DNA of 47,206 nt from Patescibacteria group bacterium (GCA_022705625.1 JAKJEE010000001.1:1-47206); one strand, 5' to 3'; numbered from the stretch's first letter, positions 1 to 47,206 are shown. Numbers and translations are program-made. Notes: generated by a model from the sequence alone, not told the origin.

Positions 1-54
1 TAATTCTTATCATATTTATAGTAAAGTTAATGTGGGGGCAGGCACCAGTCAAAA
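1..54. repeat. 54-bp direct repeat, copy 1 (may extend left of the window); contains end motif GTAAAGTTAATGTGGGGG at 21..38
   Basis: Identical 54-mer TAATTCTTATCATATTTATAGTAAAGTTAATGTGGGGGCAGGCACCAGTCAAAA recurs at 140..193. Confidence 0.9.
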
Positions 55-79
55 ATGAAAATTCCAATATTCAATATTC

Positions 80-177
80 CCCCCACACTAACTTTACGTT
101 AGAATTACAATACTTGCTAATGGACGTAATCGTAATAAATAATTCTTATCATATTTATAGTAAAGTTAATGTGGGGG
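80..177. repeat. 98-bp MITE-like palindromic unit bounded by 18-bp inverted repeats
   Basis: CCCCCACACTAACTTTAC (80..97) versus GTAAAGTTAATGTGGGGG (160..177): reverse complements with one mismatch. The same termini occur at 9770..9868 and 42978..43304. Confidence 0.7.
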
Positions 178-193
178 CAGGCACCAGTCAAAA
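140..193. repeat. 54-bp direct repeat, copy 2
   Basis: Perfect match to 1..54. Confidence 0.9.
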
Positions 194-208
194 GTAAAAA
201 TCAAAAGT

Positions 209-276
209 CCCCCTCCTTTAAAATGCAATAAAAAATTATACATCCTTCGGATGCAATGCACTTTTAAAGAAGGGGG
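209..276. repeat. 68-bp imperfect palindrome with CCCCC/GGGGG ends and a central UUCG-type hairpin
   Basis: CCCCCTCCTTTAAAATGCAAT ... CAATGCACTTTTAAAGAAGGGGG form near-complementary arms. The inner hairpin CATCC-TTCG-GATG is at 241..253. Confidence 0.6.
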
Positions 277-380
277 TGGAAAAACTTAAAAAATTTAATC
301 AATAAACCTTAACTAAAGCACTCCTTTTTCTGAGAACCATGAATGGCTCTTAAAAGAGAGGGTAAAAATTAAAAACAAAA

Positions 381-409
381 CCCCCGAGTAGACATATATC
401 TGCTCGGGG
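381..409 (-). terminator. Rho-independent terminator downstream of tRNA-Arg(UCU)
   Basis: Stem CCCCGAG (382..388) / CTCGGGG (403..409). On the minus strand it is followed by a T-run (complement of AAAAACAAAA at 371..380). Confidence 0.7.
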
Positions 410-416
410 TTTAGTG

Positions 417-488
417 TCTCCCTGGGAGGAATCGAACCTCCATCAATAGCTTAGAAGGCTACTACTCTATCCGTTGAGCTACAGGGAG
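417..488 (-). tRNA. tRNA-Arg (anticodon UCU)
   Basis: Hand-folded cloverleaf: acceptor CTCCCTG/CAGGGAG, D arm GCTC-AACGGATA-GAGT, anticodon arm GTAGC-CTTCTAA-GCTAT, T arm GGAGG-TTCGATT-CCTCC. Confidence 0.85.
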
Positions 489-639
489 AATACAAGATAT
501 TTTGTTCATTATGTTTTAAAGCAACTTTTGGATAACGATATTTATAGATTTATCTTACCATATTTGACATTTGAAATCAAGAACTTTTTTTGCTACAATA
601 TAGTTGATAGGTTAACAATCAAAAGATTAAAACGCTGAA

Positions 640-3346: not shown

Positions 3347-3360
3347 ATTTAGGTGTAATG

Positions 3361-8580: not shown

Positions 8581-9540
8581 ATGGCAAAAGTTTTAATTAC
8601 TGGCAGTAAAGGGGTAATAGGCACTCAACTAACAAAGCTATTACAGGCAAGGGGACATACGGTTTTTGGTATTGATTTAAGACATGAACCAGCTGAGGCG
8701 GGCTGAGAACACGAAATGTCGCTTGAGCAGTTTACTTATGCAAGATGTGATGTTGGTAACTATCGACAATTAGAGCGTGTTTTTGAAAAAATGGGCCCTT
8801 TTGATTTTGTCTATCATACGGCCGCTGAATTTGGTAGATGAAATGGCGAGGATTATTATGAGGAAGTTTGAAAAACTAACGTAATTGGAACCAAAAATAT
8901 TATAAGATTGCAAGAAAAATACAAATTTAAATTAATTCATTTCTCTTCTTCTGAAGTGTATGGTGATTTTGATGGTATTATGAAAGAAGAAGTTATGGAT
9001 CAACAAGAAATAAAACAACTGAATGATTATGCAATGTCAAAATGAGTTAGCGAAATGCAAATAAAAAATTCCTTTCTGTGACGAAAAACTGAAACGGTGG
9101 TGGTAAGATTATTTTGCACTTATGGTCCGGGTGAATGATATCATCCTTACAGAGGCGTTCTTGCCAAATTCTGTTACCATGCATTAATGAAAATTCCTAT
9201 TGTCGTATATAGGGGTGGGGAAAGGGGTTTTACCTGAATTGATGACGCCTGTAATGCCTTGGCAAATATTATTGACAATTTTAAACCTGGTGAGACCTAT
9301 AATATTTCTGCAACAGAATATTGTAGTATAAAAAAATTGGCTGAAATAATATGAAACTATATTGGAGCAGATAAATCTCTGATTCGCTACGAAGATTCGG
9401 AAGTAATGACAGCTAAATCAAAAAAAGTAAATGTTGATAAATCAATAAGGGACTTGGGTTTTAAAAATACTATGGCGCTGGAAGAAGGTATTAAAAGCAC
9501 TATCAATTGAATGAGGGAATATTATAATATAAAAGATTAA
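8581..9540 (+). CDS. NAD-dependent sugar epimerase/dehydratase (extended SDR)
   Basis: Absent from the ORF track because many TGAs split it. The joined frame gives VLITGSKGVIGTQL (Rossmann GxxGxxG) and the catalytic YAMSK (YxxxK). Continuous to the TAA at 9538. Confidence 0.8.
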
Positions 9541-14635: not shown

Positions 14636-16051
14636 ATGAAAAAGGAACAAAATAAAATGGAAAAAATAGTAGCGTTTTTAAAAGATAATGGTTTTATAAA
14701 TCTATCTTCCGAACCATATGGTGGGTTTTCGAGTTCATACGACTATGGTGTTTACGGAGTGGAAATAAAAAATAATTTAAAGCAGGCCTGGTGAAACGAG
14801 ATGACAAAACATCACGAAGATATCGTTGGTATTGATTCAGCTATTTTAATGTCACCTCGCGTTTGAGAAGCATCCGGCCATTTATCCGCTGGCTTTGCTG
14901 ATGAATTAGTAGAATGTAAAAGCTGTCATAAAAGATTTAAGGCCGATGAATTAGAAATCCCTTCTTTGGAAGAAAAAATAAAAAAATTGAAAAAAGATGG
15001 CGCTGTTGGTATAAACGAAATGGATATTGAGCTAAATACTAAAATTTGGAAAAAATGTAGTTGTGGAGAATTGATCACCGATTTACCTAAGAAATTTAAT
15101 ATCATGATGAAAACATTTGTTGGCCCAATTGAAAGCGATACCAATGTAGTATATTTAAGAGGGGAGGCCTGTCAAGGTATTTATATGAATTTTTTATGAG
15201 CTAAAAATTCCGCTCGTATGAAAATACCATTTGGTATTTGCCAGATTGGAAAAGCGTTTAGAAATGAAATAACTCCTGGTCCGTTTACTTTTCGAACGAG
15301 GGAGTTTGAACAAATGGATTTACAATTTTTCGTTAAGCCCGATGACGCTGACCAATGATTCGAATTTTGAAAACAAGCAAGAATAAATTTTTATATTAAT
15401 CTTGGTATTAGTAAAGATCATTTAAGGTTTCATGATCACCCTCAAAACAAATTAGCTCATTACGCTAAAAAGGCCTGTGACATTGAATATCTTTTTCCTT
15501 GAGGTTGATCCGAAATAGAAGGCATTCATAATAGATCGGACTGAGATTTAGGTAATCATTCAAAATTCAGTGGCACGGATTTATCGTATTTTGACCAAGA
15601 AATAAAAGAAAAATATACACCCTATATTATTGAAACCTCAGCGGGATGTGATAGGACATTGCTGGCTTTCTTAATTGAAGCTTTTAATGAATTTGAAAAC
15701 GGCCGAAATAATGAAGCTAACAATGTTGAGTATTTATTAAAATTAAACTATCAATTATCGCCCGTAAAAGTTGCGGTTATGCCACTATTAAAAAATAAGG
15801 AAGGATTACAAGTTAAAGCTAGGGAAATATATAATACTTTGAAATTTGAATTTAATACTAAATTTGATGATAATGGCTCAATCGGCAAAAGATATCGAAG
15901 ACAAGATGAGTTGGGCACACCTTGATGTATAACAGTTGATTTTGACACTTTAGAAGATAATTGTGTTACGGTGAGAAATCGTGATACGATGTTACAAGCA
16001 AGAGTTAAAATCGTTGATTTAATAAATTATATAAAAACGCACTTATGCTAA
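14636..16051 (+). CDS. glyQS: Glycine--tRNA ligase (single-chain GlyQS type)
   Basis: [22 protein letters not shown][W], SPRV[W][36 protein letters not shown][W]DL, ETSAG.DR. Bracketed W = TGA. Confidence 0.92.
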
Positions 16052-18431: not shown

Positions 18432-19931
18432 ATGCCCAAAAAAATATTTGTTACTTGCGCTTTGCCATATATTAACGCTGACCCACACTTGGGCCATGTT
18501 TTTGAGTTTATTCAGGCTGATTGCTTCGTCAGATTTAACAAACTGATTGGTAATGAAGTTTATTTTACGGCTGGAACTGATGAAAATAGTTTAAAAAATA
18601 TTTTGGCTAGTCACGAGCACAAGGTAAGTGTTAAGGATTGAATTGATCAAAAAACAGCTTCGTTTTTAAAGCTGAAAGATGATTTTGAAATTTCGTTTGA
18701 TGATTTTATTCGCACCACTGAAGAACGCCACCATTTAGGCGCTCAAAAATTATGGTCGCACTTAGATAAAAATGATATTATTAAAAAAAATTATGAAGGA
18801 TTGTATTGTGTGGGTTGTGAAACATTTTATACCGAAGATGAGTTAGTTAATGGTTTGTGTCCAGAACATAAAAAGGTGCCGGAAAAAATTACCGAAGAAA
18901 ATTATTTCTTTGTCTTGAAAAATTATAAAAATTTTCTAATTAAGAAAATTGAAAGTGGCGAGTGAAATATTATGCCAGAAAGTCGAAAAAATGAAATACT
19001 AAGTTTTCTCAAAGGCGATTTATTGGACATTAGTGTAACCCGCAGTAAAAAGAGAAGTGAGGGTTTGGGAATTGAAATTCCCGAAGATAAAGAACAAGTA
19101 TTGTGGGTATGGATCGATGCTTTATCAAACTACATTAATGTTCTCAATTATGGCTTAAGCGACCAAACATTATTTGAGAAGTGATGAAACCATAGTGATG
19201 AAATATGACATTTCTTGGGTAAGGGAATTTTAAGGTTCCACGCAGCTTTTTGACCAGCATTTTTGCAATCAGCGAAAATTAGAATTCCAACTCATTTATT
19301 CTGTCATGGCTATATCACTGTTAATGGGGAAAAGATGTCAAAATCTTTAGGCAATAGTGCTGATCCTCGTGAATTATTAAAAAAATATCCACTGGATTCT
19401 ATTCGTTATTATTTGATGAAAGATATTCCGTCTGGAGACGATGGCGATTTCAGTGAGATAAACTTAATTAGTCGTCATAATAATGAACTTTGTGCCTCTT
19501 GAGGCAATTTAGTTTCTAGGGTGTTGGCATTGGGCGAACAATATCAACAGCCCATAAAATTAGTCGCCAACGAGTTAAAGCCAGAAATTGATGAATCAAT
19601 AGAAAATTATATTGAATGTTTTTCAAAGGTAAGAACCAACGACGTGGTTAGCGTGTGTTTCGATTTAATTGCCAAAATCAATAAATATGTTAGTGATCAA
19701 AAACCTTGGTCGTTAATTAATACTTCAAAAACCGATTTTGAAAGAATAATTTCAAGTTCGCTATATGGCATTATTTACGCTAATTTATTATTGTCCGCTA
19801 TAATGCCCAAGAGTAGCAAAAAAATATTTGATAGGTTGGATGTACAAATCGCGAGTTTAAAAGATATACCGTTGTTGGCAAACCAAGAATTCACTCTTAA
19901 AAAACCAGAGAATTTATTTAATCGTATTTAA
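18432..19931 (+). CDS. metG: Methionine--tRNA ligase
   Basis: HIGH-type ALPYINADPHLGH, CxxC zinc knuckle (YCVGCE...CPEH), YVW-like VWIDAL, F[W]PAFL, KMSKS. Four fragments are in one frame. Confidence 0.92.
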
Positions 19932-25255: not shown

Positions 25256-27865
25256 ATGATTAAAAAAATAGCCAAGAAAAGTTTATTAATATTATTATTA
25301 TTTATTATTACCTTGTATGGAGTTTTAACGCCCATTAAGAATGTTCATTTTGAAACCAATACTTGTTCGGCAGCATCAGGAGATGCGTTCCGACCAAAGA
25401 TAAAAACCAATGATGTAGAAGAACAAGCGGTTGATCAGGAATGGTGTCCAGATTGTACAGCAGCAGTACAAGGAATGACTATCTGACGTATGATGGTTGC
25501 GCCTATCGACACTTTACTTTCTTTAATACCAAGACTGCTGGTTTTTATATCAAAATGAATTGTAATTTTGTTTGCCAATATATTACAATCAGCTATGAAT
25601 CCGCGAGCTAATAGTTTTTTGGATGGTATAAATCGTTTTACTGGCGAGGGCAATGTGGCGAGATGAGTTTGACAAAATTCTTTATACTTTGCCAATATTA
25701 TGATTACTTTATTTTTAATTTGAATTGCTATCAACATCATTTTAGAAAAAGCAGAATATACATCTTATCAAAGTTTAATAAAGTTATTAACTGTGGCCTT
25801 ATTAATTAATTTCTCATTGGTAATTTGCACTTTGCTGGTTGATATATCAAATTATATTGCTTCTTTATTTATGTCTGGAGTCAATGGTCAAGCCTTTTCT
25901 TGCACCTATGCTTGTGCTATTCATAAAGTTGCCAATAGCTTCAATTGTGTTGCCGATAAAATGATGCTTTCTCAAACAATTCAAAATAGTTTAGCCTTGG
26001 TGGTAGCAATTATTTTTATTGGCCAGTTATTAGGTTTGATTATTTTTGTATTCACCCGTATGATTTACTTGTGATTTTTGGTTGGCGTATCGCCATTGGC
26101 TATCGTGCTATCAGCCATACCTGAAACCGAAGGTATCTATAAACAATGATTAAATTTGTTTAAAACCAATTTAATAAAATTACCGGCTATCGCTGCTGCC
26201 ACTTATTTTATTCTAAATATTATCTTGTTTATTACTAACCAATCGATGAATACACCAGTTGCCCAGGGCGACGTTATGGAACATGTGCTAACTACCACTT
26301 TTTTGATTATCATTCTGTCGCAAGGACTACTTATGGCTGCTCAAGCCATTGGTGTTGAACAGGTGACTAAGATGTCAGCAATGGTTAATGGCGCAGTCAA
26401 GAAAGGCTGAAATGCGATTAAAGCACCTGTTGCCCAACAATCAAAAAGATTCGCGGCTAATGTACCAATCGTTAGAAAAGGAACGGAAATGCTACAAAAT
26501 AGCAGTGTGCCGTGGATCGCAAAATCGGGAAACAAACTGGCTGCTCAAGTAGCTAAGGATCAGAAAAACGTAGCCACCAATATGGAAGATTTATTCGCCA
26601 ATGCCAATTGAAGATCTTTGGAACGATTAGCCGAAAGTAAAGACCCAACGGTGCGCGTTCAAGCAATGTCTTATTTATCTCAATTAGGATCAAAATATAA
26701 AGCCAAAAATAAATATACTGAAGATCCTGATAAAATTAACGCTATTAAAAAATTGGCTGACGATAATGTTAATATTGATAACTCTGCTGCTTACGATACC
26801 CTTAAAAAAACTTCGCCATTGTTTAAAACTGGCATAAAATCGCTAAGAGGTCAGAAAGGAATAGAAAATATTAATGACACCGTTGGAGAAATTAGTGCCG
26901 CCCTAAACGATGATAAGGGTGCCATGGATATTCAATCAACACTAGACACATTAATAAAAAATGCTGGTAGTAATCTGCCATATTTGATGAAAACTCTTCA
27001 GCGCGATCTTGACCCATATATTCTTAACGGTAAAGCCAAATCACTTGGCAACAAGGGTTATTTGAGCTTAATGGACACATTAGCTAAAGGTATTATTGTC
27101 GCTAAAAAAATAAAGAACAACGAAATCGCTCCGGCTGAAATTGATGATAATTTAAATGGTTTTATGCAGGGTTCGTCCACAGAGAATGCTGAAATGAGAA
27201 ACTATATTAAAAATCATCTTGTCGCTGATGCTGTGGAAATAGCCGAAAGTACAGAATATAATTTCTTTGGCAAGTGAGGAAGAAAAGGCCCGAGTTCATT
27301 TAAACGCACTGCTCAAGGACGTTTGTATATTAATATGGATAGCAATTCTTCTCCTATAAACATTAATAGAGCCAATACCAATAATAACGCTCCACAAAAT
27401 ACAACTACGGAACCAATTGATCGTGGGGAAGAACCTCCTTTGACTAATGATGGCGGTAGACCAACTGGGAGTAGAGACGCTGCTCCAGCCCCAGATAGTG
27501 GTAGGCCAGCTGAGAGTAAAGACACTGCTCCAACTCCAGATAGTGGTATGAGCGATGTAAAAGATGCTACACTATATCATTTTAACGAGTTGCGTAAAGA
27601 AATTAGAGAAGTCGCCTCAGATCTTCAAAAAGATTTACCGGAAATTAAAGATTTAATTCCAAAAATCAATGCGGCAATTAATTATGCGTCTGAAGATAAA
27701 AATAGAGAGTACATATCTTTAAGAGACAGGATAGACGAGCTTAAAACCAATTTAGAGTCAAACACTTCTTATACCTTCTCAACAAAAGATAAGTTAGAAT
27801 TGTTAATTGAAAAACTTGAACAAATGGAAAGATTGCGAGAAGAAAAAGATCATTCGTCAGAATAA
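25256..27865 (+). CDS. VirB6/TrbL-like polytopic membrane protein with a long hydrophilic C-terminal extension (869 aa)
   Basis: Five track fragments (25256, 25793, 26156, 26618, 27323) share one frame and are separated only by TGA. It has a signal/TM N-terminus, at least six hydrophobic helices between about 25480 and 26400, and heads a T4SS-like operon. Confidence 0.5.
27455..27544 (+). repeat. Two tandem 45-bp coding repeats (GRPTGSRDAAPAPDS / GRPAESKDTAPTPDS)
   Basis: Direct comparison of 27455..27499 with 27500..27544. The tract is locally GC-rich. Confidence 0.85.
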
Positions 27866-27940
27866 AAAGCCACTCCTGTTTTTTGGCTAGTCGATTATTG
27901 CGCATGATTAAAACTATATTGTTAATAAATAAAACAGCTT

Positions 27941-28918
27941 ATGTTGACCGAAATCTATATCGGCGATATCATTGACAAACTACCAGACCAGATACAGTCA
28001 ATTATTTTTAGTGATGAGTTAGAACAAATTGTTGACAATCTCTCTTCGATAATAGGCCTGGATGAAGATCAAAAAATGCTATTGTCTCAAAGTATTACTA
28101 CTTTACTAATGGGAAAATATGATTTTGTCACTTTTAAAAATGTGTTGTTAGGTTTTAATTTAAGTGAAACAAATATTAATCTCGCATTAGATTATTTAAA
28201 CAAAAAATTATTTGATAAAAATAAAAAATATATTAATGATGCGAGCTATATATACCGAGAAGAATTACAAAAACTACAAAATCCTAAGCAAGAGTTAGTG
28301 ACCAATTTTAGCAAAAATACGACTCCATCTGTGGTATCATATATAAAAGAATTGGCGGAAACTATAAAACAAAAAGAATCTCACCCAAAAAGCGAAACAG
28401 CATTAGAAGTCATAAACAACGATAATATAGCCGCCGCCGTTAAAACTCCGATTGAAAACACTCTTGCCAAAACCGCTGATCAAGTGGAGCCAACAAAATC
28501 TACTGTGTCTCTTGAACCAGTTAAAGTAGAAGAAGCTCCTAAATTAGAAACACCGGTGTTAGAAAAAAAAGATTCTATTTTGTTACAAGCCATGCGTCAA
28601 AATTCTAATAGTGAAGACAGTAAATTAAATAAATATTATAAAGAGTTGCGTGATAGTTTATCCGAAAAAACCAAAGAAACCAAAAATGTATTTCAACCAC
28701 CGTTCAAATCGGCGACTAATCATGGAGCGCTAATTGAGTCATTTTTGGATGATACTAAAGTAGAAAAAGCTACTTCGCCCGAAGCGAATAATTTGCCAGT
28801 AAATAGTGCCCCAATTAAATATAGTCATTGAATTCAACCAGAAAAAATAGCACAAACTACTGACACTGACGCTCAATCTTTAAACGAAGAAAAAATTATT
28901 GACTTAGGCGATTTGTAA
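27941..28918 (+). CDS. Hypothetical protein (325 aa), T4SS-module-associated; low-complexity C-terminal half
   Basis: ORF 27941..28831 continues through a TGA to the TAA at 28916. No motif was recognised. Confidence 0.5.
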
Positions 28919-28993
28919 AATAAAAATATTGCTAATTAACTGGTTTTATGTTAAATTATAATAAACATTAATAAAAACTAATTTAATAATGTT

Positions 28994-29401
28994 ATGGCTG
29001 ATTATCAAGTGCCACAATTTATCGAAGATGAATCAAGATTAATTGGTCCATTTACAATAGCACAAATTTCAATATTGGTGGTTGGATGTGGGTTGGCTTT
29101 TATTGTATTTAAATTGTTTAAATCTTTTATTGGCATTCCTTTGACGATTATTATTTTGTTTATTACTGGTATATTAACTTTTGGTCGAATGAACGATATG
29201 CCTCTGTATAAAATGATTGTCCCCATGATTAAGCATTTACTTTTACCAAAATCTTATCAATGAAGTCAACCCCACTTTGTAAAAAGCACCGGACAAACTA
29301 CCACCCAAAAGGTTACTAACAATATACAGCCAACTCAAGAAACTCACAATTTTAAAAAGATTGATGATTTAACTAAAATTTTAGATAAGGGCAATGAATA
29401 A
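28994..29401 (+). CDS. PrgI-family (VirB3-like) small membrane protein
   Basis: MADYQVPQFIEDESRLIGPFTIAQ...two TM helices...GRMNDMPLYKMI. This is the characteristic PrgI N-terminal signature, and the gene sits directly upstream of a VirB4-like ATPase. Confidence 0.75.
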
Positions 29402-30077
29402 ACAATCCCGTCCCATAAATAATAAAAGCACACAATATTTAGTGCCAATAAATGAAATTCGTAATAATGTTATCGTATTGAAAAATAGTGCTTTGCGATC
29501 AATTATTGAAGTTGATGGCGTGAATATGGATCTGTTAGAGAATGAAGCTCAAGAAAATTTACTTAGTAATTGACAATCTTTTTTAAATAATCTGGATTTT
29601 TCTGTTCAAATTTTGGTAACCTCCAGAAAAACTAATATTGAAGACTACTTAACTAATATTGAAAATCTTTTACCTAATACTGAAGAAGAAATGCTATTAG
29701 CTCAAGCCAATGATTATATTAATTTTGTGCGCGATTTTGTTAGCAATAATCAGATTATTGATAAAAAATATTACGTCGTGGTACCTTATGATCCAGTTGT
29801 TTTTAAGAAAAGTGCTTTGGGCGGACAAATAAAAGATTTATTGTTCGGTTTGTTTAATTTAAATCGTGAGGCCTTTTCGCAAGACATTATTTTAAGCGAG
29901 AATGAATTTCAGAAACATTATCAGCAACTAATTCTTCGTCAAGAAAACGTCATGGCCCAGTTGCAAAGAATTGGCTTAGATGCGAAATTAGTCACAACTA
30001 ACGAAATTATTCCGCTTATCCACAATATGTATAATCCGGACGTAGCAATAAAAACTGCTTTATCAAAAGATAATTAA
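29394..30077 (+). CDS. T4SS-associated protein (227 aa), possibly a detached VirB4 N-terminal-like domain
   Basis: Its start overlaps the prgI-like stop by 8 nt. The pattern VPINEIRNNVIVLKNSALRSIIEVDGVNMDLL.NEAQENLLSN[W]QSFLNNLDFSVQILV resembles the N-terminal region of VirB4/TrbE proteins. Confidence 0.4.
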
Positions 30078-30085
30078 AAAACACT

Positions 30086-31873
30086 ATGGCTATATTCTCA
30101 TCAAAAAATAAAAAAACCGAGGTTGATCAACTAATTGATCAGAGCCAATCAAGTTATGCTAAAGCCGTGGCTTCGTTACGTGATGTCATTTCGCCAGCAG
30201 GAATAGTTGTCAATACTACTTCCGTGAAATTAGGGGGAACTTATGCTCGCACGTTATTTATTTTAACTTACCCAAGATATTTGAGCCCAGGGTGATTTTC
30301 GTCAGTAATAAATTTTGAATCCGCTAATAATATTTCTATCTTTTATCATGCCATTGATAATTCATCAATTTTAAGACAGCTTCGAAAAAAGTTAGGCGAC
30401 GTTGGTGCTCAAATTCAATTAGAAGCCGAAAAGGGAGTGCCACGTAATCCAGCATTAGAGACAGCTATTGAAGATATTGAAAATTTACGCAATGCAATAG
30501 TGCAAGGCACCGAAAAAATGTTTCGCGTGGCAGTTTATATTACTTTAATTGGCAATAGTGAACAAGAATTAAACGACAATGAAAACAAAATTAACACCTT
30601 TTTAGAAAGTAAGTTGATTTATCCAAAATCAGCTCATTTTCGACATTTTGAAGGTTATGAAAGCACCATACCACTATGTTTAGACCGCTTGGGCTATGGA
30701 ACATTATTAAACTCTACGCCAGCTTCGACTCTTTTTCCATTTATTTCTGCAAGTTTAACTCAAAATTCTGGCATTATGTATGGAATTAATTTAATCAATA
30801 ATAGTTTAATAATTTTCGATCGCTTTAGTTTAGAAAATGCCAATATGTGCGTGTTTGGGACATCTGGTAGTGGAAAAAGTTATGCCGTAAAAACCCATGC
30901 CGTTAGAGAATTAATGATGGGCTCAGAAATTATCGTTATTGATCCAGAAAACGAATATGAATATTTAGCTAAAGCGGTGGGTGGTGAAAGCTATAAAATT
31001 GCGGTATCATCCAAAGACCATATTAATCCTTTTGATTTACCAATTATAACCACTGATGAAACTGTTGGTGAAGTATTTCGTGGTCATGTTTTAAATTTAA
31101 TTGGTTTAATTAAAATTTTATTGGGAGGACTAAGTCCAACTGAAGAGGTGGTTATTGACCAAGCTATTACTTTAACTTATGCCTCTCGAAATATTGATGT
31201 TGAATCCGATAATGCTATAGAAAATATGCCAATCCTGGAAGATTTGACTAACGTTTTAAATACTATGGAAGGTGGGGCTAATTTGGCGGCTAAATTATAC
31301 AAATATACCAAGGGAACTTATGGTCAGTTTTTAAATCACCCCACCAATATTAATATCAGAAATAAATTTGTTGTTTTTAATATTAATGAATTAGAAGAAG
31401 AATTACGACCAATTGCTATGTATATCTTGCTTAATTATGTTTGAAATAGTATTAAAAGAATTATGAAAAAAAGAATTTTAATTATCGAAGAGGCCTGACT
31501 ATTAATGAAATTTAAAGAAAGTGCCAACTTTATGCTAAGTTTTGCTAAAAGAGCTAGAAAATATTATTTAGGATTAACAACTATTACTCAAGATTTGGAT
31601 GATTTTTTGAAGTCACCTTATGGTTTACCAATTATTGCCAATTCGAGTATCAAACTCTTGTTCAAACAGTCCACTGTTTCCATTAATCAATTAGCCGAGG
31701 CATTACAATTAACTAGCGTTGAAAAAGAATTATTAACGCAAATAAATATTGGCTCAGGATTATTTTTAGCTGGCGATAAACATACTTTAGTACAAGTCGT
31801 GGCTTCTTACACTGAAGATCAATTAATCACCTCCGATCCAGCGAGATTAATGTCTTTAAAAAATAAATCTTAG
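30086..31873 (+). CDS. VirB4/TraC/PrgJ-family type IV secretion ATPase
   Basis: Walker A GTSGSGKS (30857..30880) and Walker B ILIIEEA[W] with W = TGA at 31496. N-terminal YARTLFILTYPRYLSPG[W]. Three fragments are in one frame. Confidence 0.85.
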
Positions 31874-31875
31874 CT

Positions 31876-32556
31876 ATGTCTGTAACATTAATTGCGGCCG
31901 GTGTTAAGGTGGCAGGTAAGACCTTGGTCAAAAAGCTCGGCACCAAGGTAGTTCAAAAGGGAGCCAAACAAGTGGCCAAAAAGGGCACACAAAAACTTGC
32001 CCAAGAAGGAGCAAAAAAATTAGGCACATCAGCCGTTAAAAAAAGTACATCACGAGGAGCTACTAATCAGTTTCAAAAAGCTAAAAATTTATACAATGAA
32101 GTAGAAAACACTACAAAAATCAAAGACAATGTGCCGGCCAAAGATGAGCCAGAAAAACAAACTGACACTACCACCGAAACCAGCCACCAAACATCAGACA
32201 CCCAGCCACCACAAAAAAAATCGGAAAGTAAATGACCGTTTTATATTGCAATGTTCTTTGCAGTTATTAAAGATGCTGTGGAAATATGACTTTCGCCGGT
32301 TGCCCCAGTTTTAACTTTCTTGCCCACGATAATTATTACCTCCATATTGCTTTTATCTGGCAAAAAAGGTACAATGAAAATAGTAATATCTTTGTTAACT
32401 ACGCTGGTTGATTTTTTAATGCCGGGTGTCAATATCTTACCAATGACAACTATCGCGGTGTTTATAACTATGAAACCAGATAAATCCAAAAAACTAAATA
32501 TTAATAACCAACAGGTCTCAAAGATTGTAAAAAGTGTAAAAAAATTTATAAAATAA
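31876..32556 (+). CDS. Hypothetical membrane protein: Lys-rich quasi-repetitive N-terminus plus C-terminal TM helices
   Basis: Fragments 31876..32235 and 32320..32556 are in the same frame, joined across two TGAs. The N-terminus carries KKLGTKVVQKGAKQVAKKGTQKLAQEGAKKLGT. Confidence 0.5.
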
Positions 32557-32560
32557 TTGC

Positions 32561-33562
32561 ATGATTAAAAATATATTAATAAAAATAGTATATATCATAA
32601 TCTTCCTGCTAATATTGATCCCGCCAATGAAAGTTTTGGCTAGTAATTACATTTGAGAAGTGAGCTTACCGGGTGTATCTTTGCAACGATTAAATAATTT
32701 GAATGGCTTTGGCGATTTAGTAAATATGATAGTGGGTTTGGCTTATAGAGCGGCCCTGCTGTTTATGTTGTATAAATTAATTGTGGTTGGTTTTAAATAT
32801 ATGACTAATCAGGGAAATGCCGATGTAGTAAAGGCAGCATCAGAAGGATTAAAAAATATTCTTTTCGGGGCTTTAATTTTATTTGGCTCCTATATAATTT
32901 TATATACTATTAACCCCAAACTAACAGAGTTTCCTCAACAATTATATTGTGACCCTAAAATAGCAGATTGCGAAAAGAAAAATACAGGTAAATCCAACAC
33001 GCATGTTTATACTACCTGTCCAAGTATAATTGAAGATCCTCGTGAAGATGAGACCCAAGCCGCGGATGGGGGAACAAAATCCGAAGATTCAACTGACGAT
33101 AACGGCATAAGTCCAACAACGATTGAAGATTTTATCGATGCTAATGACGCCTATTTAGCTCAACACGGTGATTGGACTAGTGCTCAACAGGATTTCCAAA
33201 CCGGCAAAGTTTCTAACAGTGTATGAGAAGCATTTAAATTAATTACCGATTTAAGAAAAAAATGATATTCAGATGGTTGTGGCAAATTGGTGTGAGGCCC
33301 AATCTTTACTAATCACGAAAAACCAGCTGGATCGACATATACTTCTTGTCATGACACTTACGAAGCGATTGATTTAGTGGTAAATGACGAATATGGAAAA
33401 ACGTCAATAAAGTGCACAACTGAATTTCTAAAATATATAAAAACTAGTGGGGTAGCAAGCGCTACGGGGGTAATAATATGTGATGAAACAAATTTTTCCG
33501 ATGTTACTCCTCACATTCATATCTCTGATACTAATTGTAACTCGGGATGTCGTGTTTCTTAA
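32561..33562 (+). CDS. T4SS pilin-like (VirB2/TrbC-like, CPR type) N-terminal domain fused to a Cys-containing C-terminal domain with LAS/M15-type zinc-peptidase motifs
   Basis: Signal peptide, then two TM helices flanking YMTNQGNADVVKAASEG. C-terminal motifs S-C-H-DTYEA-I-D (33344..33373) and H-I-H (33512..33520). Confidence 0.55.
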
Positions 33563-35509: not shown

Positions 35510-36913
35510 ATGTCGAACGAAGAACTAAAAAGATTGTGAAAAGACGTATTGTCGGAAATTGAATTAAATATTTCTAGGGCCAATTTTATTACTTGATTTA
35601 AAAACAGTGCAATTATAGAAAAAACCAAGGACACGGTAATCGTGGCCACTAATTCTAATTTTGCTAAAGAGTGACTTGAAAATAGATATAATAAATATAT
35701 TAAAAAGGCCTTGGAAAAATTTGCCCCCGAAATAAAAACCATTATTTATAAAACCGATTCAATCGATAATATTAAAAAATATCAAAGTATTAGTGAAAAA
35801 GATTTAACTAATGATACAGCTGTTAATCCTAAAAAAACCAGTGGGGTAGCTGCTCACTTAACTCAATCAGCCCAAGATCCAGATACTAATTTAAATTCAA
35901 AATATACATTTGATAATTTGGTAGTTGGTTCACATAATGAACTGGCTCATGCCGCTGCATTAGCAGTAATTGATAATTTGGGATCTAAATATAATCCTTT
36001 GTTTATTTATGGTGGGGTAGGGTTAGGTAAAACTCATTTAATGCAAGCCCTCGGGAATGCCGTTAAAACAAAAAATAAAAAAATAAATATCTGATACATA
36101 AATACCGAAAGATTAGTAAATGATATTATTGGTTCGATCCGAGAGCAATCCATTGATGAAGTTAAAAAACAATATAAAAAAATTGATTTATTATTAATTG
36201 ATGATATTCAGTTTATTGCCAATAAGGAAAAAACCCAAGAAGAGGTATTTCATATCTTTAATGTTTTATATGAAGCTAATAAACAAATTGTGTTTACCTC
36301 GGACCGGCCACCAAAAGCTATTCCTGGACTCGAGGAAAGGTTACGATCTCGTTTTGAAGGAGGAATGGTAGCCGATATTGGCTTACCTAATTATGAAACG
36401 CGGGTGGCGATTTTAAAAAACAAATTAAAAGATAAAAAATCTAACTTACCAGAAGAAATCATTGATTATATTGCCCAAAATATTACTAATAACGTGCGAG
36501 AGTTAGAAGGAGCGTTAAATACATTATTAATTAATTTTGAAGTTAAAAAAATCAATCCCAGCATTGAATTGTCTAAAAAACTTTTAGAAGATTTTATTAA
36601 AAAACCTAAAAAAACCGTTACACCTTTAGAGGTTTTAAAAGTGGTTTCAAATTTTTATGACATACCATTAGATAAAATTAAAAGTAACTCGCGACGAAAA
36701 GATTTAGTTAAAGCCAGACAGATTACTATGTATATATTAAGAGAATTAGTAAAATTATCTTATCCAGCTATTGGTGAAGTTTTTAATAATAAAGATCACA
36801 CTACCGTAATGCATTCTTGTAAAAAAATAGAAGAGGAAAGGGTTAAAGATAGCGTTTTAAATAGTGAGTTAGAAGCAATAATTGAAAAATTAAGTTACGA
36901 TGTGTTTAATTAG
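35510..36913 (+). CDS. dnaA: Chromosomal replication initiator DnaA
   Basis: F..F..G..N..A.AAA, Walker [19 protein letters not shown], sensor/box [11 protein letters not shown]-terminal DNA-binding KDHTTVMH. Fragments are in one frame. Confidence 0.93.
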
Positions 36914-38614: not shown

Positions 38615-40399
38615 ATGAAAGAAACACTCGAAAAAATTATATTCGAAACGATAATCAAGGTTTTAAATCAAGAAAAATTATCAATAACTATTAATCAATC
38701 GCAAGTTAAATTAGAAAAAATTTCTAATGCAACTTTTGGCGATTTTTCAACTAATATTGGTATGGTTTTAAAATTAGATTGTAATGTTATTGATAAAATT
38801 ATTAATCAATTACAAACTAATGAAGTGGTAAAAACCTTTATTGAAAAAATCGAATTTAAACAACCAGGGTTTTTAAATTTTTATGTAAAAACCGAATTTT
38901 TATTAAATAATTTAAAAACGATAGTAAATTTAAATAAAAAGCAATTTTTTACTACTAATCGAAAAAGTTTTTTAATTGAACATACTAGTCCCAATACCAA
39001 CAAGGCGTTACACATTGGTCACTTGCGTAATTCGGTGCTGGCGATGGCTATTATCCGAATTCTCAGAGCTTTAAATCATAAAGTGACGGCCGATTGCTTA
39101 TTTAATGATCGCGGTGTGCATATTTGCAAAGCAATGTTAGGTTACTTAAGATTTAATGATCAAGTGACTGATATTAAAGACTTATTAAATCAATGAACCA
39201 AACAACCAAGTAAATGGCCACAGCCGATAGCCGATGAACCAAAAGACGCTTTTATTGGTAAATATTATATTTGAGGAAATAAATTAGAAAAAGAAGAAAA
39301 ATATAAAGAAGAATTGCAATGATTATTAAGAGAGTGAGAAAATAATCATAAACAAGTGAGAAAATTATGGAAAAAACTAAATGATTGATTTTATGAAGGA
39401 TTTTCTCAAATTTTTAAAATTATCAATAGCCAAGTTGATCATTATTGATATGAAAGTAAATTTTATAATAAAGCCAAGAATTTATTAAAAGCAGGGGTAA
39501 AAAAAGGGGTTTTTAAAACGTTGGAAGATGGGGCAATCTTAACACAATTACAGGCCTATAATCTAACGGATACAATTATTCAAAGATCAGATGGCACGGC
39601 GATGTATTTTACGCAGGACATATATTTAACGAAAATGAAAACGAGCCAGTTTATTTGTGACCAATATTTATGAGTAGTTGGCCCAGAGCAAAAACTACAT
39701 ATGCAACAAGTGTTTGCCGTTTGCGATCAATTACAGATTGGCAACAAAGATAAATTTAAACATTTAAGTTATGGCGCGGTTTGTAATAAAGATGGTAGTA
39801 AAATGAGCTCACGTAGTGGCGAAGTGCTAAGTGTAGTGGAATTACTTCAAGAGGTGGTAACTGCGATTAATAACAAGATGGGAACTGATTATCAATCATT
39901 GAAGAATTTTAATAAAAAAGACCAAGAGCATATTATCAATCAGTTAGCACTGGGTTCAATAAAATACGCAATGTTAAAATTAGAACGTGAACAAGATTTG
40001 AAGTTTGATATTAATGAAGCCATTGATTTTAGGGGGAATGGTGGGCCATATATTCAATATACGTATGCGCGCTGTTGTTCGTTATTAAATAAAACCAAAC
40101 CCAATCTTAGTAATCAAGATGAGCTAAATAGTCAACTTTCCAGTGAGGAAAAACTGTTGTTAAGACATATGTTGTATTTTAAAGAGGCGCTAACCAAATC
40201 AGGTGAAAACTTAATGCCCCATATTTTAGCAACTTATTTATTCGAATTGGCCAAATATTTTAGTAGTTTTTATGAGAAAAATCGTATTATTGATGCTGAA
40301 CAAAATCAAAAACTGAGAATTGATATGACTAAAGGGGTAGCCAATATTTTAAAATGAGGATTAGAACTATTAGGCATAGAAGTAATGGCTAAATTATAG
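38615..40399 (+). CDS. argS: Arginine--tRNA ligase
   Basis: HTSPNTNKALHIGHLRN (HIGH), DGTAMYFTQDI, MSSRSG (KMSK-like), C-terminal anticodon-binding helices. Joined across many TGAs to the TAG at 40397. Confidence 0.9.
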
Positions 40400-41449: not shown

Positions 41450-42499
41450 TTACATTCCTAAAGTAATGCGACGATTTTCGGTGTCCAAAGATTTGATAGT
41501 GAATTGATAGGATTTTCCAACTTCAAGTGGCCCTTTAGGAGCTTCTTCTTCTCGAAGATCACTAAATTTGAGAAAACCATATACGCCTGGTTCTAATTCT
41601 ACTAATACGCCTAATGTGCCGGTTTTCAAAATAGTGCCTTCATATTTTTTGCCTAATTTATAAATATCAGTGATATCTTTTCATGGATCTGGTTTCAAAG
41701 ATTTGATTGACAAAGCAATACGGCCGTTAGTGATGCTTTCGATTTTAGCTTTAACAATATCACTTTCTTTATAGACAGCTTTCAAATCGGGGATTAATTT
41801 ATAATCTACTTCCGAGATATGAATTAAACCGTCAATGGCTGGTTCGCCGAATTTGACGAACAAACCAAAGTCAACAACTTTAGTAATTTCAGCATCAACA
41901 ATATCGCCAATTTGATATTGAGCAGCTAATTTTTGTTTATGTTCTTCATTAAGAACTTCGCGCTCAGAAAAAATAAGCTTAGCTGATTCTTTATCAAGAT
42001 CAAGAATTTTTACTGGTATTTCGGTATTAACAAAACTTCTAAGTCGAGCTAAAATTTCTTCTTTATCGCCACCATCAACTAATGGATAGTGCTCAGGGTT
42101 TAATTGTGATACCGGTAAAAAGCCTTTGATACCCATATAATCAGCGATTAAACCGCCACGATTGACTTCTCTAATTTTAATAGTAATAGTGTCACTATTT
42201 TTCTTGGCATTGGCTAAAGTGTATCAAATTTGATTAGCGCTGATTTCTTTTAATGAGGCCTCAATCAAGCCGTCTTCATTGTCTAAATCAACGATCATCA
42301 CGCTAATTTTGTCGCCAATATTTAGGTTTTTAATATAGTTTTTGGCAGTAATAAATTCAATGCCACGAACTACCGCTAAACCAAGAGGACTAACATCGAC
42401 ATATAATGTTTTTCCTTCTTTGCTTAAAACAGTGCCATCAATAGAAGAGCCAATAGCTGGAATATTGATTTTCTGATATTTTAAACGTGGTATAACCAT
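41450..42499 (-). CDS. rpsA: 30S ribosomal protein S1 (short form, four S1 domains)
   Basis: Three same-frame segments joined across TGAs. Repeated S1 OB-fold signatures (G.V......G..V.......G..H.SE). Confidence 0.8.
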
Positions 42500-42788: not shown

Positions 42789-42796
42789 AATTAGAG

Positions 42797-43734: not shown

Positions 43735-45630
43735 ATGAAAAAATCTATACCATTGATGTTAGTGGCTTTATTGGTGGTGGGAATATTAACTCAAGGCACT
43801 AAGGTTTTTAATTTGCCTAATTTTTTTGATAAGGTATCAACAAAATTATTTTCCTCTAAAAAAACATTGTTGGCCGATGTAGATTCGTCGCCAGACAAAA
43901 CAATTTCCCCCGTTGATTTAATTACTAGTGATATGGAAACTTGTGCGGTTGATAGTGATTGTCAACTTATCAATATAACCAACGAACCAATGGGTTGTTG
44001 CTATTGTTTAAGTAATATGGACTCAGAATGAATATGACGAGCAGTGAATGGGCAATCTCGATCGAAAATCGAAGAGATTAAAAATGAATATTGTGCTACT
44101 GAAACACGATGTCCGGTGAGTGTTGACTGTAATAAAAACCCAGTTTTACCAATCGACAGGATAGCTAAATGTGATGGTGGAAAGTGTATTGTAGCTAAAC
44201 CAGAAGTTAGCAAAAATTTAACACCAACGGATGAAGATTCGGAAGTTTCAACAGACACCAACAATGTTAATTCGATGTCGGCTACGGAAACAACATTAAA
44301 AGAATATTATTATTGTTCTTTGCCAACATATCAATGCGTAGCCAAATCTATTATAAACAATACGGGTGGCTATCTTTCACAAAAAGACTGTGAGAAAGAT
44401 TGTTCTCAAACTTTAGTTAAAAGCATTGAACTATCAGCTGATATGCTAAAATGTTCGTATAATTCCGATTGTAAAATTGTTGATACCGGTTGTTGCCCTT
44501 GTGCTTGAGGATACACTGAAAAAACTAAAACAGCTATCAATCGTAACTCAGAAAAAACTTTTTTGGCTAAATGAAAAAATGATTGTAATGGAGCAGCTTG
44601 TGTGCAATCGTCTATTAATAATTGTCGTCTTAAGGTTGAGGCCAAATGTCTAAATAAAACATGCACAGCGGTTTGAGAAAAACCAATAAAGCCAGCCGTG
44701 ACTTCAACAATGAATAAATGTATGAAAGATTCAGATTGTGCAATAGCAGAAACTGATTGCTGTGGTTGTGAAAAGGGAGGAGTTGATAATACAAAAGTGG
44801 GTATTAATAAAAGTTATTTAAATAATTTTAAAAATAATATAGCGACATATTGTAAAAAAATGAGTTTAGATTCTTGCGTTTGAAATTATAATCGATGTCG
44901 ATTTGATGCTACCGTAGCATGTAAGAATAAAGTTTGCGTTGTTAATCTAACGAGTCAGGGTTCATCCGGTGAATTACCGGTTACGCCACCTATTTCTTCG
45001 ACGACGACGACTATTACCACTACGACTACTACGACGACCACTACGACTACTACTAAAGCTAGTGCGCCAGTTATAACTGAAGAACAAAGAAAATGCACCA
45101 GTGATGCTCAATGTAGTTATGTTGAAACTGATTGTTGTGGTTGTAAATATGGTAACGATTTTCTAACACAAATGCCAATTAATTCTAAACACAAGTACAC
45201 TTTTACTAATACGCTTACTAAATATTGTCAAGCCAATAAATTATTACCTTGTAAATCAGTTGGTGTCAATAATTGTTTTACTCCCAAAGTAAAATGTATG
45301 AGTGGTTTATGCACTAATATATGAGTGGCTCCGGTCGCCTCGACAAGTGTTACCTATAAAAAATGTACTGCTGATACCGATTGCGTTGTTATTGAAACCG
45401 CATGTTGTGGTTGTGAAAATGGTGGTAATATAGCTACAAAGATTGGTATTCATAAAAACTATTTAACTTCGGTGTTTAATACCTTTAAGACAAATTTAAG
45501 TAAATATTGTCATGCGGTCAATCAAGATAATTGTAGTTCAACTGATAATAAATGCGAGGGTGAACCAAAAGCAGTGTGCGTTAAAGAAGGATCAATTAAA
45601 GTTTGCAAAGTGAAGGCGGCCAATGAGTAA
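43735..45630 (+). CDS. Secreted cysteine-rich repeat protein (631 aa): signal peptide, five ~80-aa Cys-rich modules, poly-Thr linker
   Basis: Fragments 43735, 44044, 44698 and 45325 share one frame, and the gaps contain only TGA. The repeated core is C-x3-D-x-C-x5-6-[TE]-x-CC-[GP]-C. The Ser/Thr tract is at 44995..45054. Confidence 0.75.
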
Positions 45631-45679
45631 ATAATTAGTGAAAATCCAATCTTAAAACGGGAAGGATTAAAATTAACAT

Positions 45680-45707
45680 TTGACAATCAAGGTATATGTG
45701 CTATACT
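45680..45707 (+). promoter_or_regulatory. Near-consensus sigma-70-type promoter for the RRM protein gene
   Basis: TTGACA (45680..45685), 16-nt spacer, TATACT (45702..45707). This leaves a 5' UTR of about 100 nt containing the hairpin CTTACAT...ATGTAAG. Confidence 0.55.
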
Positions 45708-45816
45708 ATTAATGTTCTCTTATGAGTCCTTTTCCTTACATAGATAAAATGATGTAAGCAAGAAAGAATGAGTAGGGATAGGTCGCTTAATTATTTTATC
45801 TAGACAATAATATACC

Positions 45817-46155
45817 ATGGCAAAAAAATTATATGTTGGAAATTTGTCTTATAGTGTGACTGACGAATCACTAAAAGAATATTTTTCTCAAGCTGGTGTA
45901 GTTGAAAGTGCAACTGTTCTTATGGACAGAATGACAGGCCGATCCAAAGGATTTGGTTTTGTCGAAATGTCAACTGATGAAGAAGCACAAAAAGCTATAG
46001 AAATGTTTAATGGCAAGGAATTGGATGCAAGACCATTAACCGTTAATGAAGCTCGCCCCAAAGAAGAGGGTGCTGGCCGATTTAATCGAGGTGGTGGTTT
46101 TGGCAACAATCGTCCAAACCGAGGAGGTTTTGGCGGTCAACGAAACAACTGATAA
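45817..46155 (+). CDS. RRM-type RNA-binding protein with a Gly/Arg-rich tail
   Basis: RNP2 LYVGNL and RNP1 KGFGFVEM. C-terminal RGG-like tail. Ends ...NN-TGA(W)-TAA. Confidence 0.88.
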
Positions 46156-46170
46156 GTTAAACATACCATT

Positions 46171-46195
46171 AAAACCCCCAGCAATGGGGGTTTTA
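46171..46195 (+). terminator. Terminator after the RRM protein gene
   Basis: CCCCCA-GCAA-TGGGGG, then TTTT. Confidence 0.8.
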
Positions 46196-46350
46196 CTATA
46201 TTTTAAAAGTTAATTTGGTCAAAATAATAAACAACAATGCGAAGCCAATAACACATGCGCTGGTGCATTAAATGGTTCTCAAACCGGTGGTAATAGTTGT
46301 CAAAATAATAATAAAACTTGTGGTTGCAAAAAATAAGCAACATTAAGCGT

Positions 46351-46378
46351 AAAAGAAAAAAAGGACATTGTCCTTCTT
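46351..46378 (-). terminator. Terminator after obg
   Basis: AAGGAC (46361..46366) / GTCCTT (46370..46375). A T-run follows on the minus strand. Confidence 0.65.
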
Positions 46379-46383
46379 TTGCA

Positions 46384-47206
46384 TTATTTGGAAATAATTT
46401 TCTTTAACTTGTCATTATTAAGTTTATATAATAATTTTTTGAGTTTTTCAATGCTGTCATAATCATAAATTGATAAGCAAAGAATATTTTTATTGATTTT
46501 GGCAAATTGGGTTTTAAGTTTAGTAATAATTTTTTTATCAACGGTATCGGTCTTGGTTAGAAAAATATATTCTGGTTTAGTTTTGAATATTTTATTGTAT
46601 TTTTCTAATTCTTTTCGAATTTCACGATAGGCAGCGATTGGTTTTGTATTTTCACAACTGATTAAATGAAATATAATTTTAGTTCTTTCAATGTGACGTA
46701 AAAATTTAATACCCAATCCTTTGTTTTGAGAGGCACCTTCGATTAAGCCAGGAATATCGGCAATAATTAAATCTTCAAATACACCCAAATGAGGTTCTAA
46801 AGTGGTAAAAGGGTAATTAGCAACTTTGCTTTTGGCGTTAGTGATTTCATTAATTAAACTAGATTTACCAGCATTTGGCAAGCCAACTAAGCCAATATCG
46901 GCAATCAGCTTTAATTCTAAACGAATTGTAAAAGCTTGACCGGGTTTTCCTTCTTCAAATTCTTGAGGAGAAGTATTCGTTGAAGATCGAAAGTGAAAAT
47001 TGCCACGACCACCAATGCCACCTTTGGCAATTAGAATTTTTTCATTAACATTAATAATTTCTGAGGTAGTATTATTGTCTAAGTTATGAATGATTGTGCC
47101 CACGGGTAATTTCAGAAAAATATCTTCACTGGTACGGCCATCAATAAATTGTCCTCGGCCGTCTTGGCCATCTTTGGCGATAATTTCTTTAATGTAGCGA
47201 AATTGT
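46384..47206 (-). CDS. obg: GTPase Obg/CgtA (5' end lies outside the window)
   Basis: Obg-fold GG.GG.GN..F, G1 GLPNAGKSSL, G2 YPFTT, G3 DIPGLIEGA, G4 TKTD. The frame stays open to the window edge. Confidence 0.9.
   Translation of the reverse strand, partial: QFRYIKEIIAKDGQDGRGQFIDGRTSEDIFLKLPVGTIIHNLDNNTTSEIINVNEKILIAKGGIGGRGNFHFRSSTNTSPQEFEEGKPGQAFTIRLELKLIADIGLVGLPNAGKSSLINEITNAKSKVANYPFTTLEPHLGVFEDLIIADIPGLIEGASQNKGLGIKFLRHIERTKIIFHLISCENTKPIAAYREIRKELEKYNKIFKTKPEYIFLTKTDTVDKKIITKLKTQFAKINKNILCLSIYDYDSIEKLKKLLYKLNNDKLKKIISK

Follow-up and report, generated by a model that had tools for sequence, protein, structure and literature searches.

What does the codon TGA mean in JAKJEE010000001.1:1-47206, a stretch of 47,206 nucleotides (31.5% G+C) from a Patescibacteria group bacterium (GCA_022705625.1) that we analysed over its whole length and call the window? 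Read with table 11, open reading frames (ORFs) of at least 100 amino acids (aa) cover 0.68 of the window and the longest has 467 aa; with TGA as a sense codon, the coverage is 1.18 and the longest ORF 872 aa, and as a control, taking TAG as sense raises the coverage to 0.76 only. A preliminary description made from the sequence alone had proposed that TGA encodes tryptophan, and not glycine, in a host resembling Patescibacteria and not Mollicutes. We found that TGA is here a sense codon under purifying selection at tryptophan positions, interchanging with TGG and never serving as a stop in the window. The window very probably represents the origin-proximal part of the chromosome of a patescibacterium of the family JAKLIH01, using code 4 with UGA for tryptophan and with UAA and UAG as stops.

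TGA is a sense codon at tryptophan positions

With TGA as sense, genes chosen greedily and without overlap number 43 and are tightly packed over 88% of the window. Among their 13,799 codons, TGA is found in frame 122 times (8.8 per 1000 codons) and TGG 29 times, TGA thus making up 81% of the tryptophan codons under this reading. The two together account for 1.09% of the codons, an ordinary frequency for tryptophan, and TGG alone for 0.21%. The genes end in TAA (38) or TAG (5) and never in TGA (88%, 12%, and 0%), and no interruption by TAA, TAG, or a frameshift was found in the 43 frames, in line with the earlier remarks that split genes always break at TGA and that TGG remains in use beside it. 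The protein lengths match those of orthologs in a standard-code relative, locus L095, with no C-terminal extensions (VirB4 595/591, DnaA 467/461, and DnaN 371/373 aa). The genes needed for the argument are listed below, with their numbers of in-frame TGA.

8581..9540, plus strand: NAD-dependent sugar epimerase/dehydratase, 319 aa, 9 TGA
14636..16051, plus strand: glyQS, class II GlyRS, 471 aa, 9 TGA
18432..19931, plus strand: metG, MetRS, 499 aa, 7 TGA
21021..23153, plus strand: pnp, PNPase, 710 aa, 2 TGA
25256-27865, plus strand: TrbL-like protein, 869 aa, 10 TGA
30086-31873, plus strand: VirB4-like ATPase, within a type IV secretion-like cluster
35510..36913, plus strand: dnaA, 467 aa, 4 TGA, of which 3 are TGG in the standard-code L095
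37172..38287, plus strand: dnaN, 371 aa, no TGA
38615..40399, plus strand: argS, ArgRS, 594 aa, 8 TGA, most of them TGA or TGG in recoded relatives
41450..42499, minus strand: S1-domain protein, 349 aa, 2 TGA (42224-42226 and 41681-41683)

The preliminary description had claimed that reading through TGA restores full-length proteins, and the products indeed align from one end to the other with homologs of known structure in the PDB: GlyRS over residues 11-469 of 471 (E = 6e-134), MetRS over residues 2-479 (E = 1e-95), and the epimerase over residues 3-319 (E = 2e-83). The epimerase and the 869-aa protein lie exactly where they had been placed. To GlyRS we aligned 120 database homologs, 108 of which come from standard-code Patescibacteria with at most 62% identity. 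The nine TGA of the window meet the following residues in these 108 sequences.

Residue 53: W in 95
Residue 77: W in 108
Residue 188: N in 86, W in 13
Residue 241: F in 49, W in 40, Y in 17
Residue 245: W in 105
Residue 289: F in 97
Residue 291: W in 108
Residue 303: W in 106
Residue 430: F in 53, Y in 40

Five of the nine thus stand on near-invariant tryptophan columns (14792-14794, 14864-14866, 15368-15370, 15506-15508, and 15542-15544), the first two being sites that the preliminary description had singled out with exact coordinates. Glycine is never found at the nine columns in the 108 homologs. Seen from the columns, the seven with at least 80% tryptophan are encoded in the window by TGA (5), TGG (1), and a phenylalanine codon (1), and none of the 24 columns with at least 80% glycine carries TGA. 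The hypergeometric probability of finding at least five of nine TGA within seven of the 436 GlyRS columns is 2e-8.

The other alignable proteins were compared in the same manner, except that ArgRS was too divergent from the PDB entries to enter the tally. In MetRS, the TGA at 19251-19253 falls on the conserved tryptophan of the motif F/Y-W-PAxL, the corresponding site of AF-X-PAFL being tryptophan in all four PDB MetRS compared. The epimerase has tryptophan in PDB entry 8w3u at four of eight TGA sites (8839-8841, 8869-8871, 9043-9045, and 9508-9510) and methionine, lysine, tyrosine, or leucine at the rest. In the S1-domain protein, standard-code homologs have tryptophan in 7/7 sequences at 42224-42226 and in 6/7 at 41681-41683, the remaining one having serine. 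The two PNPase sites are aromatic, the 80 aligned homologs being divided evenly between W and F (40 each) at 21477-21479, with F in 44 and Y in 35 of the aligned homologs at 22212-22214, and the TGA next to the Walker B motif of VirB4 (31496-31498) is TGG in L095. The MetRS, PNPase, and VirB4 sites had all been located correctly in the preliminary description, but its claim of an aromatic position for the TGA in the Jag/R3H tail (33666-33668) did not hold, as relatives have glutamate or arginine there.

DnaN, which contains no TGA, was used as the anchor and led to a graded series of relatives. These include four recoded loci from three metagenome-assembled genomes (MAGs), L093 (GCA_964475745.1), L097 and L193 (GCA_964507765.1), and L194 (GCA_964502205.1); in the two for which it was measured, L093 and L097, the coverage by ORFs of at least 150 aa goes from 0.47-0.54 to 0.84-0.91 with TGA as sense. 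Two further loci use the standard code and are the nearest such relatives found. One is L095 (ENA ERZ27247924 k141_56611, 1-21122), with a DnaN 46% identical to that of the window and the same gene order, type IV secretion system (T4SS)-jag-yidC-rnpA-rpmH-dnaA-dnaN (compare 28994-38604 in the window); the other is L197, with a GlyRS 62% identical.

At the 62 alignable TGA sites of the window, the recoded relatives provide 116 codons: 70 TGA, 20 TGG, 12 for tyrosine or phenylalanine, 6 for leucine, 2 for glycine, and 6 others. The standard-code L095 and L197, aligned at 18 TGA sites, have TGG at 15 and phenylalanine, tyrosine, and arginine at one each. In the reverse direction, 20 TGG codons of the window are TGA in L093, L097, L193, or L194. 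Since the exchange among recoded relatives runs freely both ways, TGA and TGG act as synonymous codons. Within the species, independent assemblies of more than 10 samples yielded this sequence with 99.4-100% identity, and the 131 distinct single-nucleotide polymorphisms (SNPs), read with code 4, comprise 91 synonymous, 37 nonsynonymous, and 3 intergenic changes. A seeming intraspecific TGG-to-TGA SNP was rejected, being a two-base change to AGA.

Public gene calls treat the species unevenly: those of JGI/Logan made with code 11 (L081, L083, L084, L091, and L098) split its genes, for example DnaA into 127 + 207 aa, ArgRS into 193 + 218 aa, and the epimerase into pieces of 41-45 aa, and other sources have the genes at full length. 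As several public calls were made under code 11, protein databases hold broken versions of these genes.

Lineage and published cases of the reassignment

The relatives of the window's proteins point to Patescibacteria, as had been suspected. The best PNPase matches among the matches listed are Patescibacteria MAGs at 44-49% identity, the named DnaN and GlyRS matches belong to Paceibacterota, Parcubacteria, or Patescibacteria, and the 90% DnaN cluster has a member annotated as 'Candidatus Paceibacterota bacterium'. A DnaN with 91% identity (P0002) is encoded on contig JAKLIH010000009.1 (L198) of GCA_022709715.1, that is, JAKLIH01 sp022709715 of order UBA6257 in class Minisyncoccia (formerly Paceibacteria). 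Its gene order is that of the window at 28.5-43.4 kb, from the T4SS cluster through the tRNA cluster; the nucleotide identity is 79% over 14.1 kb, the 17 orthologs are 42-92% identical (DnaN 91%, VirB4 92%, and DnaA 89%), and TGA is present at 28 of 31 aligned TGA sites. By these comparisons the window is another species of the genus-level group of GCA_022709715.1, and we consider it a separate species of JAKLIH01 because the two are collinear at 79% nucleotide identity. The window species was found in the same metagenome series as JAKLIH01.

The reassignment of UGA to tryptophan seen here is real and was already published for JAKLIH01 in April and May 2026, so that the window adds a species and a worked example and not a discovery. 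The April paper, in Nucleic Acids Research, described family JAKLIH01 (UBA6257, Minisyncoccia) as 'a new independent case' (PMC13092985), with tRNA-UCA in two of four genomes, release factor 2 (RF2) absent in all four, UAA at 82-88% of stops, and no UGA stops (PMC13092985). For GCA_022709715.1, it lists 303 Codetta/Pfam columns for tryptophan, a tRNA-UCA, no RF2, and stops of 82% UAA, 18% UAG, and 0% UGA (PMC13092985 Suppl. Table 2); in the neighbouring family JAVHQB01, UGA makes up 3.9-4.6% of the stops (PMC13092985). The gTranslate preprint of May 2026 reported UGA-to-Trp in 12 JAKLIH01 genomes, 10 of GCA-2747955, and one more of Minisyncoccia, making Patescibacteriota the first phylum with tables 4, 11, and 25 (10.64898/2026.05.24.727570). 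The JAKLIH01 sets analysed in the literature comprise 4 genomes (Nucleic Acids Research) and 16 (GlobDB). The 2021 Codetta screen had found bacterial UGA-to-Trp only in Mycoplasmatales, Entomoplasmatales, and insect endosymbionts and UGA-to-Gly in Absconditabacteria and Gracilibacteria (PMC8629427); a review of the phylum from May 2026 names glycine recoding only, and a paper of August 2026 still puts the number of earlier phyla with code 4 at three.

The window shares with the published JAKLIH01 both the lineage and the reassignment, and its stop usage is alike, but the evidence on tRNA and RF2 comes from the genomes of those papers, from which the window species is distinct. Genus GCA-2747955 belongs to the same class and likewise has UGA as tryptophan, tRNA-Trp(UCA) being present in most cases and prfB missing (10.64898/2026.05.24.727570); it was described as a lineage apart, with a tree of its own, and placed by one paper in Rimicaris shrimp communities, and we found no sequence link between it and the window. 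UGA as tryptophan is also shared with the code-4 taxa Mycoplasmatales, with the insect and protist endosymbionts Hodgkinia, Zinderia, Nasuia, Stammera, Pinguicoccus, and Organicella, and with Eggerthellaceae (PMC13462651). They resemble the window in their low G+C, preference for UAA, and use of both TGA and TGG, and their usual mechanism is RF2 loss with tRNA-Trp(UCA). They belong, however, to unrelated phyla, and the window organism has retained a type IV secretion-like cluster as well as cell-wall-related genes and, by its gene content, is not an intracellular endosymbiont. Code 25 (Absconditabacteria, BD1-5, and class JAEDAM01) occurs in the same phylum, also turns UGA from stop to sense, and brings the same gain in coding density, but the amino acid is glycine, the class is another, and the tRNA has U73 with G1:C72 as opposed to G73 with A1:U72.

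A candidate decoder and the competing explanations

The window has seven tRNA genes, none of which carries a UCA or CCA anticodon.

416-488, minus strand: tRNA Arg-TCT
3360-3431, minus strand: tRNA Pro-TGG
9577-9660, minus strand: tRNA Leu-TAA
42542-42614, minus strand: tRNA Phe-GAA
42716-42788, minus strand: tRNA Arg-CCT
42796-42882, minus strand: tRNA Ser-CGA
43302-43378, minus strand: tRNA Ala-GGC

Walking past the right end added 3.4 kb with obg, tRNA-Val, UMPH-1-like fragments, and the start of alaS, and past the left end 138 bp up to an assembly break at a repeat of ~139 bp; neither extension contains a tRNA-Trp or prfB. At this left end, positions 1-62 recur at 140-201 (period ~139 bp), L091 (1-340) has one further copy, and of two other assemblies one stops ~138 bp past the window end and the other just inside it. 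The repeat is probably the cause of the contig's left end.

A metagenome collection was then scanned for the D-arm of a bacterial tRNA-Trp with a UCA anticodon loop after it, giving 85 matches of which 80 were analysed. Among these, 21 contigs with G+C of 0.26-0.33 hold 10 variants of one tRNA(UCA) (L126 at 1127-1201, L139, L117 at 644-717, and 18 others among L108-L187), and the nearly 30 matched contigs in this G+C range, these 21 among them, show a strong ORF gain with TGA as sense. The gene usually lies beside tRNA-Thr, tRNA-Tyr, and tRNA-Thr, and the genes on these contigs have TGA at tryptophan sites, such as RarA 'IL-X-GPPG', where PDB 3pvs has W. All 10 variants have A1:U72 and G73, and the L126 copy, AGGGGCGTAGCTCAATTGGTAGAGCAACAGTCTTCAAAACTGAAGGTTGCGGGTTCGACTCCTGCCGCCCCTG, has a non-A at position 20 (read by hand, in L126 only); by these features the tRNA fits the tryptophan rule and not the glycine rule, which demands U73, G1:C72, C2:G71, and G3:C70 (PMC8629427). 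One variant is shared by L126 (JGI 3300009780) and L139 (ERZ795059), and both samples hold the window species. The tetranucleotide correlation of L126 with the window is 0.898, in comparison with 0.881 for the congener L198 and with 0.903 when two 12-kb pieces of the window are set against each other; for seven other contigs of the tRNA(UCA) family, it ranges from -0.03 to 0.70. The L126 gene is a probable tRNA-Trp(UCA), tied to the window organism by evidence of binning grade. The family of this tRNA spans more than the window's genus, as the ArgRS of L117 (5398-7080) is only 24% identical to that of the window: L117 may represent another genus, or the family may have two ArgRS types. Next to its UCA gene, L117 carries a second, divergent tRNA-Trp(CCA) at 2373-2444, with G1:C72 and a 5-bp anticodon stem.

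In all 10 variants, the anticodon stem has four pairs only, with a mismatch at 27:43 (A:A, U:C, A:C, or A:G), and pair 29:41 covaries between G:C and A:U. Standard-code members of UBA6257 have the same tRNA-Trp backbone with CCA and a 4-bp stem (PMC13092985 Suppl. Table 5), and such 4-bp-stem tRNA-Trp(CCA) are the subject of that paper, which assigned to JAKLIH01 a CCA tRNA of 5 bp (PMC13092985). Term searches of its main text gave no statement on the stem of the UCA tRNA, nor did we find the decoder of the recoded lineage described as a 4-bp-stem tRNA in either of the 2026 papers. As the tRNA(UCA) contigs have no physical tie to the window, the 4-bp stem is to be taken as a lead only.

Several explanations compete with the reading of TGA as tryptophan under code 4 in JAKLIH01. 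Decoding as glycine (code 25), known from Absconditabacteria (SR1) and Gracilibacteria/JAEDAM01, which until 2026 were the only Patescibacteria known to be recoded, would suit the phylum, the low G+C, and the small-genome gene content, and coding density cannot separate codes 4 and 25 in public pipelines. Glycine is however absent from the nine GlyRS TGA columns in 108 homologs and TGA from all 24 conserved glycine columns, glycine codons stand opposite window TGA at 2 of 116 codons in recoded relatives and never in the outgroups, tryptophan would fall to 0.21% of codons, and the candidate tRNA(UCA) has G73 and A1:U72 where U73 with G1:C72 would be expected; we regard this explanation as very improbable. 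That TGA are true stops, in pseudogenes or through assembly or sequencing error, would agree with the fragmented genes under table 11 in several public annotations, yet the 43 frames free of other interruptions, the agreement of more than 10 independent assemblies, the 91 synonymous against 37 nonsynonymous SNPs, and the retention of TGA (70) or TGG (20) among 116 aligned codons in other species leave this with hardly any probability. Equally negligible is a Mollicutes-type organism, a recoded phage or mobile element, or TGA as selenocysteine: code 4 is classically a trait of Mollicutes, and some PNPase matches at 42-44% identity among the matches listed are Bacilli/Mollicutes MAGs, but the top PNPase matches listed and the DnaN and GlyRS relatives are Patescibacteria/Paceibacterota, genes for LCP, LysM-M23, and glycosyltransferases are present, chromosomal housekeeping genes are carried, the TGA align to tryptophan and not to cysteine or selenocysteine, and the window is collinear with JAKLIH010000009.1. 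Glycine decoding, pseudogenes, selenocysteine, a phage or mobile element, and a Mollicutes origin are all rejected on this evidence.

The mode of decoding leaves one further explanation, which we judge unlikely: a near-cognate tRNA-Trp(CCA), for instance with a 4-bp stem, could read UGA as tryptophan, RF2 possibly being kept and UGA ambiguous. The window has no tRNA(UCA), only two of four JAKLIH01 genomes have one (PMC13092985), and a 4-bp-stem tRNA-Trp(CCA) can read UGA, Zinderia apparently relying on it alone (PMC13092985). Against this, competition by RF2 is improbable since TGA is frequent, at 8.8 per 1000 codons, and never a stop in 43 genes; the congener GCA_022709715.1 has tRNA-UCA and no RF2 (PMC13092985), the tRNA-Trp(CCA) of JAKLIH01 has a stem of 5 bp (PMC13092985), and a tRNA(UCA) is found on a contig with the tetranucleotide signature of the window. 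Other points weigh against the code-4 reading in JAKLIH01 that we prefer. The placement in the family comes from one collinear 21-kb contig and not from a marker-gene tree; tRNA-Trp(UCA) is missing from the window and the 3.4 kb past its right end, and a span of 47 kb is too small for judging the absence of prfB. L126 and L139 are tied to the window organism by composition and co-occurrence only, in two of at least eight samples containing the species, none of the tRNA(UCA) contigs overlaps the window lineage in sequence or shares a gene with it, and L117, with a tRNA of the same family, has an ArgRS of only 24% identity, so that the tRNA family reaches beyond the window's genus. Finally, 60 of the 122 TGA sites are in poorly conserved or lineage-specific proteins and align to nothing.

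Under the code-4 reading, UGA would be read by a dedicated tRNA-Trp(UCA), as the published congener genome and the unlinked metagenome contig suggest, and RF2 would have been lost, as in the published analysis of the congener. The reassignment may have originated by codon capture under A+T pressure, a view we take because L095 lacks TGA altogether: of its 20 genes, 18 stop at TAA, 2 at TAG, and none at TGA, and in frame there are 46 TGG and not a single TGA. This locus looks like a 'codon vanished' stage adjoining the recoded clade, and its lack of TGA fits the low UGA stop usage of JAVHQB01. Standard-code L197 contains prfB (12230-13262), next to ftsE and ftsX, with an SPF motif and a CTT-TGA-C programmed +1 frameshift site. 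Tentatively, and with considerable doubt, one could go further and see the full path of reassignment preserved in the lineage: a superwobbling 4-bp-stem tRNA-Trp would have read UGA first, alongside the disappearance of TGA, the change of anticodon and the loss of RF2 would have come later, and the tRNA that decodes UGA in the recoded lineage would likewise have a 4-bp stem.

Other features of the window and meaning of the case

The remaining features are as follows.

1..47206: chromosomal segment of a JAKLIH01-genus patescibacterium, 43 genes and 7 tRNA genes
10123-11151: MscS-like gene
25256..33562, plus strand: type IV secretion-like cluster beside the replication origin
45817..46155, plus strand: RRM-type RNA-binding protein, its frame ending in AAC TGA TAA

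The window is chromosomal, as it carries dnaA, dnaN, rnpA, yidC, three aminoacyl-tRNA synthetases, S15, and smpB. The preliminary description had reported wall enzymes, a PrgI-type T4SS module, a GIY-YIG relic, and a near absence of Shine-Dalgarno sequences, and most of this was borne out. Pfam recognizes LCP, LysM+M23, PrgI, TraC-like, VirB4, and TrbL domains, and glycosyltransferases are present alongside LCP and LysM-M23; the proposed 3D domain at 11331-11855 has no Pfam match at E <= 0.01. Besides the TrbL-like and VirB4-like genes, the secretion-like cluster contains PrgI-like and TraC-like genes, one unknown gene, and two unknown membrane or secreted proteins, and it adjoins jag-yidC-rnpA-dnaA-dnaN in every relative fetched (L093, L095, L097, and L198). 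A Shine-Dalgarno-like motif (GGAG, GAGG, or AGGA) is found within 17 bases upstream of 1 of the 43 genes, in comparison with 5.8% of random windows, and the regions upstream of the 43 starts are A/T-rich.

The GIY-YIG relic is a degraded reading frame at ~42996-43160 on the minus strand, its C-terminal half intact and with stops upstream, and the JAKLIH01 type genome has an intact gene of 85 aa there. Between tsaE and hup, L198 has an insertion with a second GIY-YIG gene and an RVT_1 reverse transcriptase that the window lacks (GIY-YIG and insertion regions in L198: 15229-17372 and 20554-20811). In the RRM gene, the TGA right before TAA (46147-46155) may be what remains of an ancestral TGA stop, now adding one tryptophan. 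A protein of 631 aa (43735-45630, plus strand), secreted-looking and with seven in-frame TGA but without a Pfam match, has about five Cys-rich repeats (...DSDC...TDCCGC...) parted by a poly-Thr linker (TRF 44999-45055), and the intergenic stretch upstream of the MscS-like gene contains a perfect tandem of TTTGACA, 3.9 copies at 9913-9939.

The amino acid and the phylum had both been inferred correctly from the raw sequence alone in the preliminary description. Only two parts might exceed the published accounts, namely the sister lineage without TGA and the 4-bp anticodon stem of the candidate tRNA-Trp(UCA). For the biology of the group, UGA-to-Trp in Patescibacteria is a free-standing, cell-wall-bearing case of this reassignment, outside the setting of endosymbionts and Mollicutes.

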